Assembly: GCA_964351415.1 (NCBI GenBank)
Contig: CAYGOG010000001.1
Span: 1,811-27,250 of the forward strand
Length of the DNA stretch: 25,440 nt
Direction of reading: 5' to 3'
From: an uncultured bacterium
GTDB lineage: Bacteria > Chlamydiota > Chlamydiia > Chlamydiales > SM23-39
The notes beneath the pieces were generated by a model, which saw only the letters and a list, made by a program, of their open reading frames with translations, had not been told where the DNA came from and searched no databases. This document shows, in pieces, positions 3,599 to 13,669 of this stretch; the stretch's first letter is position 1; each line of letters begins with the position of its first letter. The position numbers were made by a program, and so were the translations under genes.

Positions 3599-4438
3599 AT
3601 GGAATACCGCGTCACTGAACCCATGCTCGCCCGCGAGGCGATCCGCCGCCTCTATCCGCAGAGCTCTCGCCGCACGCTGCAAAACTGGCTGCGCGGGGGC
3701 CGCTTTGCCGTCGACGGGCAGCCGCTCTACCGCGAGTCCGATCCCCTGCAAGAGGGGCAAGTGGTCACCGCCCGCGAGGGATACCGCGTGCGCCGTTTCA
3801 TCGCCGATATGGAACTGCTCTATGAAGACCGGTACGTTGTCGCGATCCATAAGCCGCAGGGACTCCTCAGCGTTCCGCTCGATGAACAAGGGCTCGAATC
3901 GCACGCGCTCGGCCTCCTCAAGGGCTACTACGGCACCTCGCAAATCTACCCCGTCCACCGCCTCGATCGGGAAGCCTCGGGCGTCCTCGTATTTGCCCGC
4001 GGGAAAGAGTCGGAAGAGCGGCTCAAAGCGCAATTCGAGGCGCACAAACCGCGCCGCGAGTACGTCGCCGTCGTGCATGGCCACATTGAAGAGCAAAAGG
4101 GCACCTGGAATATCCCGCTGCTCGAGCTCCCCTCCTTTCGCGTGGTCGTGTCCTCAGATGGGCGCGACGCCATCACCCATTACGAGGTGATCCGCCGCTC
4201 GAAGAAATACACCTACCTGAAGCTCTTCCTCGAAACGGGGCGCAAGCACCAGATTCGGGTCCATTGCAGCCATGCAGGGCACCCGATTGTGGGCGATGAG
4301 CGATACGGCTCGGATGAAGACCCGATCGGCCGCATGTGTCTCCACGCGCGCGACCTCCAGATCAGCCATCCATTTACGGAAAAGCCGCTCCATTTTGAGT
4401 CGGCTCCCCCGGGGCCATTCCGCAAACTCGGTCTTTAG
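3599..4438 (+). CDS. RluA/RluD-family pseudouridine synthase with a degenerate N-terminal S4-like region
   Basis: KPQGLLS, catalytic VHRLDREASG, LETGRKHQIRVH, GHPIVGDERYG and MCLHARDL motifs. I moved the start to ATG 3599, after the upstream stop. Confidence 0.93.
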   Translation: MEYRVTEPMLAREAIRRLYPQSSRRTLQNWLRGGRFAVDGQPLYRESDPLQEGQVVTAREGYRVRRFIADMELLYEDRYVVAIHKPQGLLSVPLDEQGLESHALGLLKGYYGTSQIYPVHRLDREASGVLVFARGKESEERLKAQFEAHKPRREYVAVVHGHIEEQKGTWNIPLLELPSFRVVVSSDGRDAITHYEVIRRSKKYTYLKLFLETGRKHQIRVHCSHAGHPIVGDERYGSDEDPIGRMCLHARDLQISHPFTEKPLHFESAPPGPFRKLGL

Positions 4439-4486
4439 TGTCTAATTGCGAAAGTTCGTGAACGAATCTTTCGCAATTAGACACTA
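4436..4486. repeat. 51-bp palindrome spanning the whole gap between two convergent stop codons (possible bidirectional terminator or mini-MITE)
   Basis: Perfect 19-bp arms TAGTGTCTAATTGCGAAAG (4436-4454) / CTTTCGCAATTAGACACTA (4468-4486), plus an inner TTCGT/ACGAA stem. Confidence 0.9.
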
Positions 4487-8224: not shown

Positions 8225-9349
8225 ATGTCGAATCGCAAACTGATTATTTCTACCGGCCTCGCCATGTTCTCCATGTTCTTTGGCTCGGGCAACCTCGTCT
8301 TCCCCCTCGTCGTCGGACAACTCTCCCAAGGCCACTACCTCCTTGCCACCCTCGGCTTCTTCGCCACCGCCGTCCTCGTCCCCTTCCTCGGCATCCTCGG
8401 GATGCTCCTCTTTAAGGGCGACACCCACAGCTTTCTCTCTCGCCTCGGCCGTTACGCCCCTTTCTGGTTTTCCCTCATTGCCCTTTCTCTCATGGGGCCA
8501 TTTGGCGTCCTCGCCCGGTGCATCACCGTCGCGCACGGCTCCTTTACCCTCCTCCTCCCCTCCACACCCCTTTGGCTCTTCAGCCTTATCTCCTGCGCCC
8601 TCCTTTTCCTCCTCACCGTCCGCCAAAACCGGATCGTGCCCCTTCTCGGCACCTACCTGACCCCCATCCTTCTCTTAGCTCTCGGCGCAATTGCCCTCAT
8701 CGGCCTCACCTCCCATCCCCTTCCGCTCGCCATCCCCGGCACTTCGCTGTCCATTTTAACCGATTCCCTCCTCAAGGGGTATCAGACGATGGATCTCCTC
8801 GCGGCCTTCTTTTTCTCCACATTTGTCATCCGCCACCTAGAGCAAGACGATCCGCGCGCCTCTCTGTCCATCTTTTTCCGCGCCTCGCTCCTCGGCGCCG
8901 GCCTCCTCTCCCTGATCTATTTCGTTTTGATCCTCGCCGGCTCCATGTACGCCCCTGAACTCGCCTCCATTCCGCCTCAAGAAATGTTTGGCCATGTCGC
9001 GCAGCTGGCGCTGGGGCCTCTGGCGGCTCCCCTTGTCGCAACGGCCGTCATCCTCGCGTGCGTCACCACAGCGGTCGTCCTCGCCACCCTCTTTGCCGAG
9101 TTCGTCCAAGCGCACATCGTGCCTCTCTCGCGACCCCTCTCCCTCCTCCTCACCCTCGCAATCGCCTTTTCCACCTCCATCCTGGGCTTCTCCCGAATCG
9201 CGCAATACCTAGGATTTTTCCTAGAAATGACCTACCCCGCCCTGATCCTCCTTACCCTCCTCAATATCTTCCACCGCCTCTACGGCTGGAAAATGGTGAG
9301 GATTCCAACTGCGGTGGCTGTGTTAGCGAAAGTCTTTGCCTCTATTTAA
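8225..9349 (+). CDS. brnQ: Branched-chain amino acid transporter, BrnQ/LIVCS family (copy 1)
   Basis: GLAMFSMFFGSGNLVFP, LGTYLTP, KGYQTMDLLAAFFF, LACVTTAVVL and YPALI are BrnQ motifs. Confidence 0.92.
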   Translation: MSNRKLIISTGLAMFSMFFGSGNLVFPLVVGQLSQGHYLLATLGFFATAVLVPFLGILGMLLFKGDTHSFLSRLGRYAPFWFSLIALSLMGPFGVLARCITVAHGSFTLLLPSTPLWLFSLISCALLFLLTVRQNRIVPLLGTYLTPILLLALGAIALIGLTSHPLPLAIPGTSLSILTDSLLKGYQTMDLLAAFFFSTFVIRHLEQDDPRASLSIFFRASLLGAGLLSLIYFVLILAGSMYAPELASIPPQEMFGHVAQLALGPLAAPLVATAVILACVTTAVVLATLFAEFVQAHIVPLSRPLSLLLTLAIAFSTSILGFSRIAQYLGFFLEMTYPALILLTLLNIFHRLYGWKMVRIPTAVAVLAKVFASI

Positions 9350-9405
9350 AAGATAAGAAAGAAGGGTTTCCCCTAGGCAGTCGGGGACTGCGTCCCCCGC
9401 CGCCC

Positions 9406-9649
9406 CCACAAGCGGTTCACCCAGTTGCTGCGACTCAATGTAAAGCGGCTTTACAACAGATTACGCAAACACCGCGTTCAGAATTCGTTGCCACGGAGGG
9501 GCAGCGGGAGCGAAGCCCCGACTGTGCCTCCACAAGCGGTTCACCCAGTTGCTGCGACTTAATGTAAAGCCGGCTTTACAAGAAATTCTGTAAATATAGC
9601 ATTCGGAATTCGTTGCCATGGAGGGGCAGCGGGGGCGAAGCCCCGACTG
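9406..9649 (+). repeat. Two tandem ~120-bp direct repeat units (9406-9524 and 9530-9649)
   Basis: Both run CCACAAGCGGTTCACCCAGTTGCTGCGACT...TGTAAAGC(C)GGCTTTACAA-[24 nt variable]-GAATTCGTTGCCAYGGAGGGGCAGCGGGRGCGAAGCCCCGACTG. Confidence 0.95.
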
Positions 9650-9705
9650 CGAGCACTGCGCAGTGAAAGAGGGACGCGAAGCGGCCCTCTCACGGAGCAG
9701 CCGAC

Positions 9706-9805
9706 GGGTTTTTCTGACAAAGCAAAATCGATCCGCACAAGGGGGGTGCTGTGTTCCACACAGCCCCTCCGCAGAAGGGTCGATTTGGCACAGTCAGAAA
9801 AAGCC
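9706..9805. repeat. 100-nt imperfect inverted repeat (long hairpin)
   Basis: GGGTTTTTCTGAC/GTCAGAAAAAGCC, AAATCGATCC/GGGTCGATTT, GGGGGG/CCCTCC, and GCTGTGT-TCC-ACACAGC at the apex. Confidence 0.9.
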
Positions 9806-9879
9806 TTTGCAGGGGCAGCTGGGGGTGCAACCCCCGACTGCCTAGGGGAACCCTTTCTCTCTCTTATTTGTTTTCTTGT

Positions 9880-11055
9880 TTAACCAACAATTAAACCGAT
9901 TGCTGAGAGTCCCAGTACAATCCAAAAGGGTACCTTCACGGCCGTTGTGCCGTAGAGCTTGTGGGCAATATTGGCCAGGCAAAGGATGATGAGGGCTGGA
10001 TAGACCGCCTCAAGGATGGGGCTTGCCAGACGCATAATCCCGCTAAAACCCAAGTTTGCCAGGATCGCCATGGTCGAAATCGTGAGGATCTGCGCTGTCA
10101 AGGGGGACACGCGGCTGCCCAAAAGCTCGGTGCGGATCATGTCCGAACAGATGAGCGCCAAAGAAATTGCCGTTGTAAAGCACGCAAAAAACACCGCACC
10201 GCTGGCCACTAGAGCTCCCCAAGGGCCTAAGACCCGATCTGCCAAAGCATGGAGCAATTCTTGAGGCGCGAGATTGGCTGACAGAGATGGGCCATGGTGC
10301 GCTGCGAGATAGGTCAGGCCAATATAGGTCGCCATCAAGAGCGCGGAGGCAATGAAGCTCGCCCCAATCATCCGCGTCCGGGCCATCTCAGCGCTTGTCA
10401 CCCCCTGCGATAGGTGAGGCATGATTACGGTCGCAAATAAGAGCGATGCAATGAGATCGGTTGTCTGATAGCCCCCTTTTAAACCCGCGAGAAAACTCTC
10501 CATCGTCGTCACACCGGTATAGGCAGCAGAGGGCGCTGTGTACCACCCAAAGAAGATGAGCAGAAGCAGGGTGAAGAGGAGAATGGGCGTGAGGACCATC
10601 CCCAGAAGATCGATGATGCGGGTGCGCCAATGGACAAAGGCGAGCACAACGGCGCAAATGAGAACGCTGAATAGCGGCAAGCTAAATTGAGGGAAAAATT
10701 GGGTAAAGCTGACGTGCATCAGCGTCACAAGGCGCGGCATGCTGGCAACAGGACCTTGTGTCAACAGAAGGACAAAGAGCAGGGCAAATGCGGGCCAACG
10801 ACCCAAGCGACCCAGAAAAGCGCGCAAATCGGCGCCGTACATCATCATCGCGATTAGGCCCAGAAGGGGAAACAAAACAGCCGATACGCCCAACCCCACA
10901 ATGGCCGCGGAAGACTCGGTTCCGACCATCTTTCCCACAATGAGAGGGAAAATCAAGTTTCCCGCGCCAAAATACATGGAAAAGAGGGCAAGGCCCGTGG
11001 AAATTACGCCAGACCAAGGAGAAATGACGTCTTGCGTTTTGATTGTGGTCGACAT
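9880..11055 (-). CDS. brnQ: Branched-chain amino acid transporter, BrnQ/LIVCS family (copy 2)
   Basis: GLALFSMYFGAGNLIFP, LGMVLTP, GGYQTTDLIASLLF, FACFTTAISL and YPALI motifs. Confidence 0.92.
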   Translation of the reverse strand: MSTTIKTQDVISPWSGVISTGLALFSMYFGAGNLIFPLIVGKMVGTESSAAIVGLGVSAVLFPLLGLIAMMMYGADLRAFLGRLGRWPAFALLFVLLLTQGPVASMPRLVTLMHVSFTQFFPQFSLPLFSVLICAVVLAFVHWRTRIIDLLGMVLTPILLFTLLLLIFFGWYTAPSAAYTGVTTMESFLAGLKGGYQTTDLIASLLFATVIMPHLSQGVTSAEMARTRMIGASFIASALLMATYIGLTYLAAHHGPSLSANLAPQELLHALADRVLGPWGALVASGAVFFACFTTAISLALICSDMIRTELLGSRVSPLTAQILTISTMAILANLGFSGIMRLASPILEAVYPALIILCLANIAHKLYGTTAVKVPFWIVLGLSAIGLIVG

Positions 11056-11159: not shown

Positions 11160-12479
11160 ATGACTCAAGAAACCCTGCGCGTCCCCACCTGGATTCACCG
11201 AATCGCAATGCCACTCTTTCTCGTGGCCATATGCCCCCCCGCTGTGTTCATCTTTTGGTACACCGCAACTCACCTAGATGGCTCGTTTATCGACCTCTGG
11301 AAGCTCATGCAAATCCAAGGCATTGGCAAAACGTTTTTCGACATTTGGATCCCCGTAGCGTTCGGCTCCGCCAAGGCCTGGAAAATCATCGGCATTTTCG
11401 CCGCATTCCAACTGCTCTTAATGCGGGTTGTCCCGGGCAAGCCGTTCTTAGGCCCGATCACCCCCATGGGCAATGTCCCCCTCTACAAAGCCAATGGCCT
11501 CGCCTGCTTTGGCATCACGATGGGCACATTTTGGCTCGCCTCTCACCACTGGAACCTATTCCCCGCGACGATCCTGTATGACGAGCTCGGCCCTATCCTC
11601 GGCGCCCTCAATACATTTAGTTTGATCTTCTGCCTTTTCCTCTATGCCAAAGGGATCCTCCGCCCCTCTTCGACCGATGCCAGCTCGAGCGGCAACCCCC
11701 TCTTTGATTACTACTGGGGCACCGAGCTCTACCCGCGCGTCTGGGGCTGGGATATTAAGCAGTTCACCAACTGCCGCTTTGGGATGATGAGCTGGGGCCT
11801 TCTTCTCCTCTCGTACGCCGCCAAGCAAAAAGCCCTCTACGGCTTCGTCTCCGATGCGATGGCGGTCTCCGTAGCCCTACAACTGCTCTACGTAGCCAAG
11901 TTTTTTCTTTGGGAGACGGGCTACCTGCGCTCGCTCGACATCATGCACGACCGCGCCGGCTTCTATATCTGCTGGGGCTGCCTCGTATGGGTCCCCTCGA
12001 TCTACACCTCGCCCGGACTCTACCTCGTCCATCACCCCATTCAACTGGGCACTCCCCTTGCAGCCGCCATCTTTTTTGCAGGGGTCGCCTCCATTGCCGC
12101 CAACTACCTCGCCGACCGGCAGCGGCAAGTGGTGCGGGCGCTGCAGGGCAATTGCCGCGTCTGGGGCCGCACACCGATTCTCATTCGGGCCCCCTACAAA
12201 ACCGAAACAGGCGAACCGAAAGAAACCCTCCTCCTCGCCTCAGGTTGGTGGGGGCTCTCTCGCCACTTCCACTACCTGCCCGAAATAGGCGCCGCCTTCT
12301 TCTGGAGCTTACCCGCCCTGTTTTTCAACTTCTTGCCTTATTTTTATGTGTCGTTTCTGACGATTTTGCTCGTCGATCGAGCTTTCCGCCACGACAAGCG
12401 GTGTGAAGATAAGTATGGCCCCGCTTGGGCCGAATATTGCAGGCGGGTTCCCTACAAGTTAGTCCCGTTCCTCTACTGA
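11160..12479 (+). CDS. Sterol reductase, ERG4/ERG24 family, 7-dehydrocholesterol reductase (DHCR7/DWF5)-like
   Basis: YYWGTELYPR, KQFTNCRFGMMSW, DIMHDRAGFYICWGCLVWVP, LLASGWWGLSRHFHY and DKRCEDKYG...YCRRVPYKLVP motifs. Confidence 0.92.
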   Translation: MTQETLRVPTWIHRIAMPLFLVAICPPAVFIFWYTATHLDGSFIDLWKLMQIQGIGKTFFDIWIPVAFGSAKAWKIIGIFAAFQLLLMRVVPGKPFLGPITPMGNVPLYKANGLACFGITMGTFWLASHHWNLFPATILYDELGPILGALNTFSLIFCLFLYAKGILRPSSTDASSSGNPLFDYYWGTELYPRVWGWDIKQFTNCRFGMMSWGLLLLSYAAKQKALYGFVSDAMAVSVALQLLYVAKFFLWETGYLRSLDIMHDRAGFYICWGCLVWVPSIYTSPGLYLVHHPIQLGTPLAAAIFFAGVASIAANYLADRQRQVVRALQGNCRVWGRTPILIRAPYKTETGEPKETLLLASGWWGLSRHFHYLPEIGAAFFWSLPALFFNFLPYFYVSFLTILLVDRAFRHDKRCEDKYGPAWAEYCRRVPYKLVPFLY

Positions 12480-13469
12480 GTTATCGAGGAATTCGCCAAA
12501 GAAGTTCAGGACGAACTCGGCTGTTTCTTTGTGGAGCTTTTCCCGGTCAAAACCGGGACCTTCCCGCAAGTAGTAGGAGGGAAGCTTCACTTTGCCCCAC
12601 TCAGAAATCCGGTTCACAAACGAGTTGTGAGCGACAGGCGGCGCGAGCACCTTTAAGCGAATCGGCAAGTTGCCCTCGATCATCCGGTTCAAGTGTTCAT
12701 TCGGAGGGAGAACATCGTCCTCTTCGGGGGCGATAATGCCGATCGGCGTCCCCTGCGCTAAAATTTCTTGCGGATCGTAACCCCAGGTCGCCGGCGCAAT
12801 GAGCACGATCGCCTTGATGCGCGGATCGTAGAAGGAAACTTTTGCCTCGTCGAGATTCACCTCAGCTGCCACATCCACTTCTTTCACTTTGCCGCGCTGC
12901 GCCGCCACAATTTGCTCGAGGTGGTGGACTTCGCCGCCGGCAAGCGCCAAGCCGGTCATGCCCCCCAACGAGTACCCCACAAAGCCAATCCGCTCCCGGT
13001 CGATCCTCTCCCCCCAAACGGGGTCAGCTAAGATCGCATCCAGGGCAAATGAAACATCCCGAGGGCGCTCCCAAAATTTAAGGCTCGCAACGGGATCCAT
13101 CGTACGCCAGGTATTGCCGTGGTGTTCCACGGAGGCGACCAGGTACCCCTGCTTCACAAGCGACTCGGCAAGCCAGCTCCGATCGCGCCGATCCCCGGCA
13201 TGGCCATGGGATAGGAGGATCAGGGGACGCGGCTTATCTTGGGCAAAATAGGGGGCATTGCGCGACTCAACGGGGTGCACCCACACGCTCTCCTTGCGGT
13301 GACCGGGGGTCCACGGAGTCGTCGGATACCAGAACTCGACAGTGACGGGGCGCTCGCGGGACTCATCGCGCATCTCAAAGGTCGTCACGCCAATGGGAGG
13401 CTCAGCAGGCGCGCGAGACATCCCCAATAGGGCTGCCCCAAGCAGGAGGAAAATTAGAATTTTTCTCAT
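12459..13469 (-). CDS. Secreted alpha/beta-fold hydrolase (PAF-acetylhydrolase/dienelactone-hydrolase-like)
   Basis: Signal-like MRKILIFLLLGAALLG from ATG 13469 (my preferred start). LILLSHG, WERPRDVSFALD, nucleophile elbow GYSLGG, EEDD and AHNSF. Confidence 0.85.
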   Translation of the reverse strand: MRKILIFLLLGAALLGMSRAPAEPPIGVTTFEMRDESRERPVTVEFWYPTTPWTPGHRKESVWVHPVESRNAPYFAQDKPRPLILLSHGHAGDRRDRSWLAESLVKQGYLVASVEHHGNTWRTMDPVASLKFWERPRDVSFALDAILADPVWGERIDRERIGFVGYSLGGMTGLALAGGEVHHLEQIVAAQRGKVKEVDVAAEVNLDEAKVSFYDPRIKAIVLIAPATWGYDPQEILAQGTPIGIIAPEEDDVLPPNEHLNRMIEGNLPIRLKVLAPPVAHNSFVNRISEWGKVKLPSYYLREGPGFDREKLHKETAEFVLNFFGEFLDNSVEERD

Positions 13470-13489: not shown

Positions 13490-13517
13490 CATTTAGAGCC
13501 CCTCTCGCCACCCTTTT

Positions 13518-13565
13518 TATACCGCTATTAGCCCAAAAGGCTACTTTTCAGCTAATAGCGGTATA
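13518..13565. repeat. 48-bp palindrome in a divergent intergenic region
   Basis: Perfect 15-bp arms TATACCGCTATTAGC (13518-13532) / GCTAATAGCGGTATA (13551-13565), with an inner AAAAG-GCTA-CTTTT stem. Confidence 0.9.
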
Positions 13566-13669
13566 CTCCCCTTCTCTATTTTAAAGAAATCTCTTACATA
13601 AGCGAACTGACACAATCGGCTGAGCCCCAGCCGCTTGCATTTCAGCTGCTGCAACCGCTAAATCCTTCT

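Follow-up and report, generated by a model that had tools for sequence, protein, structure and literature searches.

The 25,440-nucleotide stretch analyzed here (the window) is part of a metagenome-assembled genome (MAG) of an uncultured Chlamydiota lineage, and the subject of this analysis is the interval at window positions 9350-9866, which occupies the whole ∼520-bp gap between two convergent, paralogous brnQ genes. This interval is a copy of a real, multi-copy, structurally constrained, mosaic family of non-coding repeats, of the same kind as repetitive extragenic palindromes (REPs), bacterial interspersed mosaic elements (BIMEs), and miniature inverted-repeat transposable elements (MITEs), and the family is probably mobile. 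The source MAG (G000) comprises 1.08 Mb in 184 contigs, has a G+C content of 57.7%, and is 93.7% complete; the window corresponds to C1:1811-27250, where C1 is one of its contigs. Relatives from the same Chlamydiota family are denoted G013, G421, G413, and G096, and the nearest homologue of BrnQ (53% identity) is found in "Chlamydiota bacterium ES1.bin.38." The features of the locus are listed below in window coordinates.

8225-9349, forward strand: left flanking gene, a BrnQ-type branched-chain amino-acid transporter of 374 aa (Pfam PF05525, E = 2.4e-48; from the list of open reading frames (ORFs)).
9349-9411, reverse strand: left terminal arm, a T-type hairpin in inverted orientation, with a purine-rich tail (9349-9363), the mini-palindrome GGGTTTCCCC (9364-9373), TAG (9374-9376), and the hairpin GGCAGTCGGGGAC-TGC-GTCCCCCGCCGCC (9377-9405); defined by the inverted repeat, 27 arm-core copies in the genome, and an alignment of 23 arms with compensatory stem changes.
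9402-9525, forward strand: tandem unit U1, with the M palindrome TGTAAAGCGGCTTTACA in its body (9439-9455) and the internal-type hairpin GGGGCAGCGGGAGC-GAA-GCCCCGACTG at its end (about 9497-9525); defined by direct repeats, U matches at ∼10 other places, and a census of M palindromes.
9526-9650, forward strand: tandem unit U2, with an M palindrome (9563-9580) and the internal-type hairpin GGGGCAGCGGGGGC-GAA-GCCCCGACTGC (9620-9650); defined by direct repeats and by a Logan contig that covers the U1/U2 junction with 0 mismatches.
9651-9700, forward strand: module P, with the 12-bp palindrome CACTGCGCAGTG (9654-9665) and the hairpin AGAGGGACGC-GAA-GCGGCCCTCT (9668-9690); 12 genome copies at 88-100% identity.
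9701-9806, forward strand: module H, an imperfect hairpin of ∼100 nt (9706-9805) with stem arms 9706-9734 / 9777-9805 and an apical hairpin (9742-9770); ∼15 genome copies at 83-96% identity.
9807-9869, forward strand: right terminal arm, T-type, with the hairpin GGGGCAGCTGGGGGT-GCA-ACCCCCGACTGCC (9812-9842), TAG, GGGGAACCC (9845-9853), and a pyrimidine-rich tail to ∼9869; defined by the inverted repeat, the arm alignment, and the arm-core census.
9880-11055, reverse strand: right flanking gene, a second BrnQ-type transporter, of 391 aa (Pfam PF05525, E = 1.6e-59).

A preliminary description of this DNA, made from its letters alone, had reported inverted arms with a perfect 19-bp core, two tandem units, a 12-bp palindrome, a hairpin with a GAA loop, and a hairpin of ∼100 nt, and all of these were recovered at the positions given, well in excess of chance. 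The 19-nt core TTCCCCTAGGCAGTCGGGG (9368-9386) returns in exact reverse complement at 9832-9850, and a repeat search extends the inverted arms to 63 nt at 78% complementarity (9349-9411 / 9807-9869). The two U units match over 45 nt at 96% and over 79 nt at 85%, with a period of 124-125. The stop codon of the left brnQ gene (9347-9349) abuts the tail of the left arm. A weak inverted repeat of 51 nt (9236-9286 / 9949-9999, 73% complementarity) is located beyond the ends of the element and does not belong to it; it reflects the inverted duplication of the brnQ gene, whose two paralogues are convergent. Neither a tRNA nor a tmRNA was found in the window.

The order of features at this locus, T(inverted)-U-I-U-I-P-H-T, contains four copies of one hairpin. 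This basic brick is a GC-rich imperfect hairpin of ∼30 nt, GGCAG-(CT)-GGGGnn-GNA-nnCCCC-(GA)-CTGCC, and it has two subtypes. In the terminal subtype (T), the hairpin is followed by TA(K)GG(R)AAACCC, which includes TAG and a mini-palindrome, and then by a T/C-rich tail of variable length, while the internal subtype (I), GGGGGC-GAA-GCCCC, closes each U unit and stands before P. The loops of these hairpins are mostly G-N-A (GAA, GCA), a type also seen in DNA mini-hairpins of unusual stability, for example d(GCGAAGC). Three conserved linkers connect the hairpins: a U body of 95 nt, P with its own hairpin, and H, which is a hairpin of 100 nt.

When the interval was compared with its own genome by BLAST, 80 matches were found on more than 30 contigs. 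The approximate numbers of modules in G000 are 27 terminal arms, 15 H, 12 P, and 10 U; the 27 arm cores occur in both orientations (14 forward and 13 reverse), and the ∼40 hairpin copies (27 terminal and ∼15 internal) are all intergenic. A rough, independent sign of ∼30 copies is the summed contig depth in the source metagenome, which is ∼300 over H and the arm versus ∼9.5 over flanking genes. Copies range in size from 100 to 550 bp. They show the recurrent order ARM(-)...[U]-P-H-ARM(+) with interiors that vary (521 bp on C1, 360 bp on C6, 430 bp on C57, and a further copy on C170), and the brnQ-gap copy on C1 is the largest assembled copy of the family. The copy on C6 is 93% identical to it across the right 300 nt, and a copy on C123 repeats the left, arm-U-U half at 78% identity. 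On C1, C6, C14, C29, C39, C57, C123, and C170, the T and I hairpins join the U, P, and H linkers in differing combinations. Thus, the family is modular: every module tested by BLASTN is present in multiple copies and the modules are shuffled between loci, which bears out the earlier proposal of a modular, non-coding palindromic family of the MITE or BIME kind, for which this BLASTN search had been suggested as the check.

The G000 assembly is broken into 184 contigs, many of which end inside repeats (of 48 regions in this repeat cluster, 19 reach a contig end), and joints that skip one U unit are present in contigs of two sequencing runs. These features would fit an assembly artefact, in which repeats of a fragmented MAG were chimerically collapsed or expanded into the composite. 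We consider this highly improbable. Logan contigs of the source study, which were assembled independently, agree with 9049-9460 and 9441-9650 without a mismatch and span both the arm-U1 and the U1-U2 joint. Since the left arm, U1, and the U1/U2 junction are all reproduced, assembly did not create the tandem structure. In addition, arm-U-U recurs on C123 and U-I-P-H-arm on C6, each with different flanks.

The interval had been described as lacking a transposase, and none of its ORFs is one. There is also no reading frame that is conserved across copies; many copies have stops in all frames, and their lengths (150-168 nt) are out of phase. For these reasons, a peptide-coding role like that of the Rickettsia palindromic elements (RPEs) was rejected.

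The distribution of the family was analyzed in two scans. The first, Chlamydiota-wide scan used a G000-specific 17-mer, which misses diverged versions of the repeat; it gave 27 matches in G000 and only chance-level, one-mismatch matches in 400 other Chlamydiota genomes. In G013, a weak match that resembled H led to 19 copies with the same architecture, with inverted arms 500-770 bp apart. The second scan used the shorter core CCCCGACTGYCTA over 71 genomes of the family, with a reversed-pattern control, and found it in multiple copies in four genomes from four genera (27 in G000, 19 in G013, 6 in G421, and 4 in G413); each of the other 67 genomes contains 0-1, equal to the reversed control. The matches in G421 and G413 are true H+arm blocks with their own tails and their own stems (GGGGACAA...TTGTCCCC and GGGGACG...TCGTCCCC). 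The distribution is patchy even at short range, as G096, which is congeneric with G421, contains 0 copies. Copies are 83-97% identical within one genome and ∼71% identical between genera, which, at the level of sequence identity, is the signature of either lineage-specific amplification or concerted evolution.

One intergenic site is orthologous between G421 and G096; it measures 468 bp, with an element, in G421 and 75 bp in G096, and its flanks are 71-75% identical, so that this site is filled in one genome and empty in the other. The gap between the brnQ genes was also inspected in relatives. The element is not there in G013, which has two ordinary ORFs instead, nor in the ES1.bin.38 relative, which has one small ORF instead; these loci were rejected as surrogate empty sites because they contain other small genes and no clean empty junction. 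The brnQ pair in the window adjoins a gene for an ERG4/ERG24-type sterol reductase (11160-12479, PF01222, E = 6e-70), and this synteny between the sterol reductase and brnQ is retained in ES1.bin.38. Outside these assemblies, neither an exact 24-mer nor a degenerate 29-mer of the arm had any match (0) in JGI metagenome contigs, and a literature search, which was not exhaustive, found no description of such repeats in Chlamydiota.

Several copies appear in rearranged forms. The minimal element consists of two arms fused at the loop (C33:3360-3461), a form that is also found at G421:C194. On C31 and C60 the P hairpin is joined to the 3' half of an arm, C35 contains a deletion between CTGCG repeats, one internal hairpin on C123 is flipped in orientation, and single-arm copies on C29, C39, and C14 begin with an I hairpin in direct orientation. 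At other loci the P slot holds hairpins of different sequence with GCA or GTA loops, such as GGAGGGCTGCC-GCA-GGCAGTCCTCC on C14 and GGAAGGGC-GCA-GCCCTTCC on C3. The deletions between CTGCG repeats, the flipped hairpins, the tandem U units, and the elements fused to other families of repeats on C35, C47, and C57 are features expected if the repeats had spread without transposition, by recombination, gene conversion, and replication slippage among pre-existing palindromes, with the mosaic as a product of such hot spots; the fact that neither a target-site duplication nor an enzyme was found also fits this explanation. It does not account for the placement of blocks of 150-300 bp that are 83-97% identical at ∼30 unrelated intergenic sites with unrelated flanks, and it leaves the lineage-specific amplification in four genera and the filled/empty orthologous site unexplained. 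We therefore consider spread by recombination alone to be quite improbable.

On C14 (5844-7213), two partial elements in inverted orientation bracket a gene in an arrangement of ∼1.37 kb that resembles a composite transposon. The bracketed 235-aa ORF was considered as an enzyme or as cargo and rejected, as it is an ordinary SBP_bac_3 solute-binding protein.

The secondary structure of the element was analyzed by folding and by covariation. The whole 546-nt stretch is predicted to fold as one giant stem that is closed by the arms, at -272.6 kcal/mol compared with -190 in shuffles (z = -11.5; none of 100 shuffled sequences folded as well), and the H hairpin (9706-9805) has a DNA fold of -31 kcal/mol (z = -6.8). 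In the alignment of 23 arms, stem pair 27-33 is GC in 14 and AU in 8, and stem pair 28-32 is UA in 15 and CG in 6. The preliminary description had called for a covariation analysis, and in an alignment of H+arm from 19 copies and two genera (10 from G000 and 9 from G013), both sides have changed in 10 of 35 pairs, compared with 0-3 in controls in which the partners were slid by 1-3 columns. In the same alignment, 98.5% of cells pair (34-52% in the slid controls), the covariation score is 0.26 (0.02-0.12 in controls), and neither of the observed values was reached by any shuffle. These data demonstrate that the structure of the H-arm block is conserved across genera.

The exceptions to Watson-Crick pairing in this alignment are not symmetric. 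On the strand that reads outward, G.U is found at ∼10 pair positions and A.C at ∼2. The excess of G.U over A.C points to folding of the strand that runs P->H->arm->tail.

The genomic context of the copies was analyzed next to their structure. All copies are intergenic. Among fully flanked copies, 5 of 10 lie between convergent genes, compared with a background of 19%; ∼17-23 element ends face the 3' ends of genes and ∼10-12 face 5' ends, and in 8 of the 11 copies that can be oriented the upstream gene reads into the I-P-H-T direction. Each end presents, in outward direction, a GC hairpin, a GGGnAAnCCC mini-palindrome, and a T/C-rich tail. Plausibly, readthrough transcripts from flanking genes would contain the element as a 3' untranslated region (UTR) rich in structure, and they may stop at the far arm.

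These observations raise the question of whether the elements are primarily RNA devices that are useful to the host, that is, portable bidirectional terminators or 3'-UTR stabilizers that would shield convergent genes from antisense readthrough and 3' exonucleases and would be kept by selection on RNA structure. The enrichment between convergent genes and at gene 3' ends, the outward GC hairpin followed by a T-rich tail at both ends, the direction of upstream genes, the very stable predicted fold, and the excess of G.U over A.C on the outward-reading strand are all consistent with such a role. The position biases are weak, though (p about 0.03-0.1), and are equally expected of tolerated selfish insertions. 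About one-third of the ends face gene 5' ends, and the U-tract is ∼12 nt away from the main stem and is broken by C; the main hairpin is set apart from the T-rich tail by TAG and the GGGnAAnCCC mini-palindrome. Because the family is distributed patchily even within one genus (6 copies in G421 and 0 in G096) and is absent from most genomes of the family, the elements are dispensable. On balance, we think it unlikely that a benefit to the host is the primary reason for their presence.

To place the family among known repeats, we compared it with REPs and related systems. REPs are multi-copy, extragenic, imperfect palindromes of 20-40 nt, >90% of which carry GTAG or CGTC as an unpaired tetranucleotide at one of their ends, and their transposases (REP-associated tyrosine transposases, RAYTs) are flanked by REPs in an arrangement called a REPtron (Di Nocera et al. 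2013, PMC3733652). The hairpins of the family are like REPs in size, extragenic position, clustering, and copy number, but they lack the GTAG/CGTC tag; the terminal type has CTAG or ATAG (GTAG in 1 of about 25), the tag slot of the internal type is CTCG, and no RAYT or REPtron was found with the family in MAGs that are 60-94% complete. The family also resembles E. coli-type REPs and BIMEs, which likewise use a short, GC-rich imperfect palindrome of two subtypes in both orientations, are mosaics of the two subtypes and conserved linkers with variable composition, have covarying stems, and occupy extragenic sites that are chiefly downstream of genes or between convergent ones. The family differs from BIMEs in its much larger linkers (the 100-nt hairpin and the 95-nt U body), in the pyrimidine-rich tails at its ends, and in its host, which has a reduced Chlamydiota genome. 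REPINs of Pseudomonas, which are inverted REP doublets mobilized by RAYTs, share with the family an inverted pair of hairpins that forms a larger hairpin, the minimal two-arm form, and lineage-specific amplification; most copies of the family, however, are not simple doublets, the interiors can be as long as 400 bp, and no RAYT was found.

MITEs, such as the Correia elements of Neisseria and those described in other endosymbionts, for example Cardinium (PMC9769881), are likewise non-coding, multi-copy, intergenic elements of 100-550 bp with long terminal inverted repeats (TIRs) that form a single long hairpin when folded and could have effects as terminators. In contrast to MITEs, the family has neither a definable target-site duplication nor a parent insertion sequence (IS) that was found, many of its copies have one arm, and its hairpins repeat internally in direct orientation. 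A BIME-like mosaic built from one small hairpin in two subtypes and a set of linkers fits the family better than a single rigid MITE does. RPEs are similar in being palindromic and in having proliferated in a small genome of the obligate-intracellular type with no known transposase, but they often lie in-frame inside genes and carry a CGTC tag, whereas all copies of the family are intergenic and without a conserved frame. The family also shares hairpin-based, strand-asymmetric structure and G-N-A triloops, which are typical of very stable single-stranded DNA mini-hairpins, with the ends of IS200/IS605 elements and their PATE-type derivatives. One IS200/IS605 element resides in G000, but the family has no sequence similarity to its ends (hairpin CTCGGCCGTAAACGGCCGAG), TnpA was not found in the G013 assembly although the repeats are present there, and IS200/IS605 elements lack TIRs. 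An Rfam search (E <= 1) returned a single chance hit to SNORA64 (E = 0.83, and 16.6 bits where the gathering score is 35). The absence of a match in Rfam and of the canonical GTAG/CGTC hallmarks of REPs agrees with the earlier statement that the element cannot be assigned to a named family.

Considering the above results together, we think it fairly likely that the family is lineage-restricted, non-autonomous, selfish mosaic DNA that is mobilized in trans and remodelled by recombination. According to this proposal, the repeats would spread as selfish DNA through an enzyme, supplied in trans, that reads the H-arm hairpins on one strand. Copies would then be remodelled by slippage and by recombination among similar hairpins, which could yield the tandem duplication of U, hairpin flips, P-to-arm deletions, and the minimal two-arm palindrome. 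Elements inserted in intergenic DNA, mostly downstream of genes, would give readthrough transcripts a very stable 3' structure, and each end, with its outward-facing hairpin and U-rich tail, may act as a terminator.

Several results weigh against this proposal. No cognate enzyme was found in G000 or in the repeat-bearing relatives, although these MAGs are 60-94% complete and its absence is unproven. No arm or H adjoins the IS701, TnpB, or IS110 loci of the four repeat-bearing genomes. No target-site duplication could be defined in the two-armed copies of G000 and G013 or in the G421/G096 pair: the ends of the elements fade into variable T/C-rich tails, there is no direct repeat at the C1, C6, C33, or C57 copies or at those of G013, and the junctions of the G421/G096 site are too diverged (71-75%) for a duplication to be read. 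The preliminary description had suggested a search for empty sites, which succeeded for the copy of a relative (the G421/G096 pair) but not for the brnQ-gap copy, for which no empty site was found in Logan contigs from four runs of one study over positions 8600-10600; none of these contigs joins across the element, and they break in repeats. The arm hairpin alone is no more stable than shuffled sequences (z = -1.2 to -1.9), so the weight of the arms comes from copy number and covariation and not from thermodynamics. Arm-to-arm correction in DNA palindromes also yields compensatory changes, and because it can produce them, such changes are no proof of selection on an RNA or single-stranded DNA fold. 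As for the proposed effect on transcription, a scan with a terminator consensus flags only the mini-hairpin of the left arm.

The preliminary description had also suggested that an enzyme might be flanked by the same ends, an expectation that the transposase genes of these genomes do not bear out. The single Y1_Tnp gene of G000 matches the IS200/IS605 equivalog NF033573, is divergent to TnpB, and has its own subterminal hairpin but no flanking arms; it was rejected as a RAYT because it is an ordinary IS200/IS605 TnpA with a TnpB and an unrelated hairpin. The complete IS200/IS605-type element (G000:C8:6737-8313) contains divergent tnpB (383 aa) and tnpA (129 aa) genes and adjoins an ankyrin-repeat gene, and a second TnpB-like gene is located at C12:∼11700-12900. 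Y1_Tnp is present in 16 of 46 genomes of the family and was not found in G013. Neither Y1_Tnp nor DDE_5, TnpB, or IS110 tracks the repeat-bearing genomes, none of them has flanking arms, and DDE_3 and rve are absent from G000. A DDE_Tnp_1 match was rejected as the mobilizer because it is an IS701-family gene with its own TIR that is inserted in a different repeat family. This gene (C37:4500-6240) is single-copy, encodes a 454-aa transposase (NF049999), has a 21-nt TIR (CTCGACTTTAGGATTTTTTTG), lies within a copy of a fourth palindromic family (CACAGAGAACACAGAG..., ∼10 copies), and adjoins a gene of the phage-integrase family. A parent IS with the same termini as the repeats was not found in any of the four repeat-bearing genomes.

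A more far-reaching possibility, which we regard as doubtful, is that the H-arm module is the cis signal of an unrecognized, RAYT-independent mode of hairpin-mosaic propagation that would act through an enzyme acting on single-stranded DNA or through host replication and repair. The family would then in effect be a third REP-like superfamily, beside the GTAG and CGTC ones, and might double as a portable terminator. In this view, the H-arm block has been kept by compensatory changes in four genera, is strand-asymmetric, and has G-N-A triloops.

Other repeats are present in G000. The M palindrome, (A)TGTAAAGC-N(1-2)-GCTTTACA(T), is 17-18 bp long and occurs at 50 sites in G000, compared with 0 for a reversed control; these are the two in the U units of the window (9439-9455 and 9563-9580) and 48 others, mostly alone and intergenic. 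Of 45 other genera of the family, 28 have the exact motif; a genome can hold as many as 37 sites, and all controls gave 0. M looks like a separate and much older family-wide operator-type site or dispersed motif that is independent of the mosaic element. The window also contains fragments of two further repeat families. One fragment (13516-13579; C1:15326-15389) belongs to a second family of 36 regions, whose full copies are near-perfect palindromes of ∼180 nt with ends TACCGCTATTAGCTGAAAAGTAGCC flanked by TA, as in classical MITEs. The other fragment (4432-4469; C1:6242-6279) belongs to a third family of 27 regions, which consists of ∼140-nt palindromes with CACAGGATAGGCAGGAT repeats around small GC hairpins and which abuts the mosaic element on C35 and C57. 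In addition, C51, C59, C68, C119, and C23 contain multi-copy protein genes that share the N-terminus ...EG(I/M/V)MAAASS... and ∼1 kb of repeated DNA; judged by eye, these do not resemble transposases and possibly form a paralogous, effector-like family.

Small genomes of the intracellular type are usually thought to be poor in repeats, but this 1.08-Mb Chlamydiota genome holds at least four palindromic families that make up 4.6% of the assembly, and palindromic repeats are a main cause of its fragmentation. Since the motifs mark contig breaks, they can guide the scaffolding and binning of these MAGs, and a covariance model could be seeded directly with the cross-genus alignment of H-arm blocks. 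The mosaic family behaves like REPs, BIMEs, and REPINs without their hallmark tag or enzyme, and it bears on how hairpins can propagate without a RAYT, which is an open problem also for CGTC repeats and RPEs. If the arms do terminate transcription, these elements would be movable regulators of convergent gene pairs.

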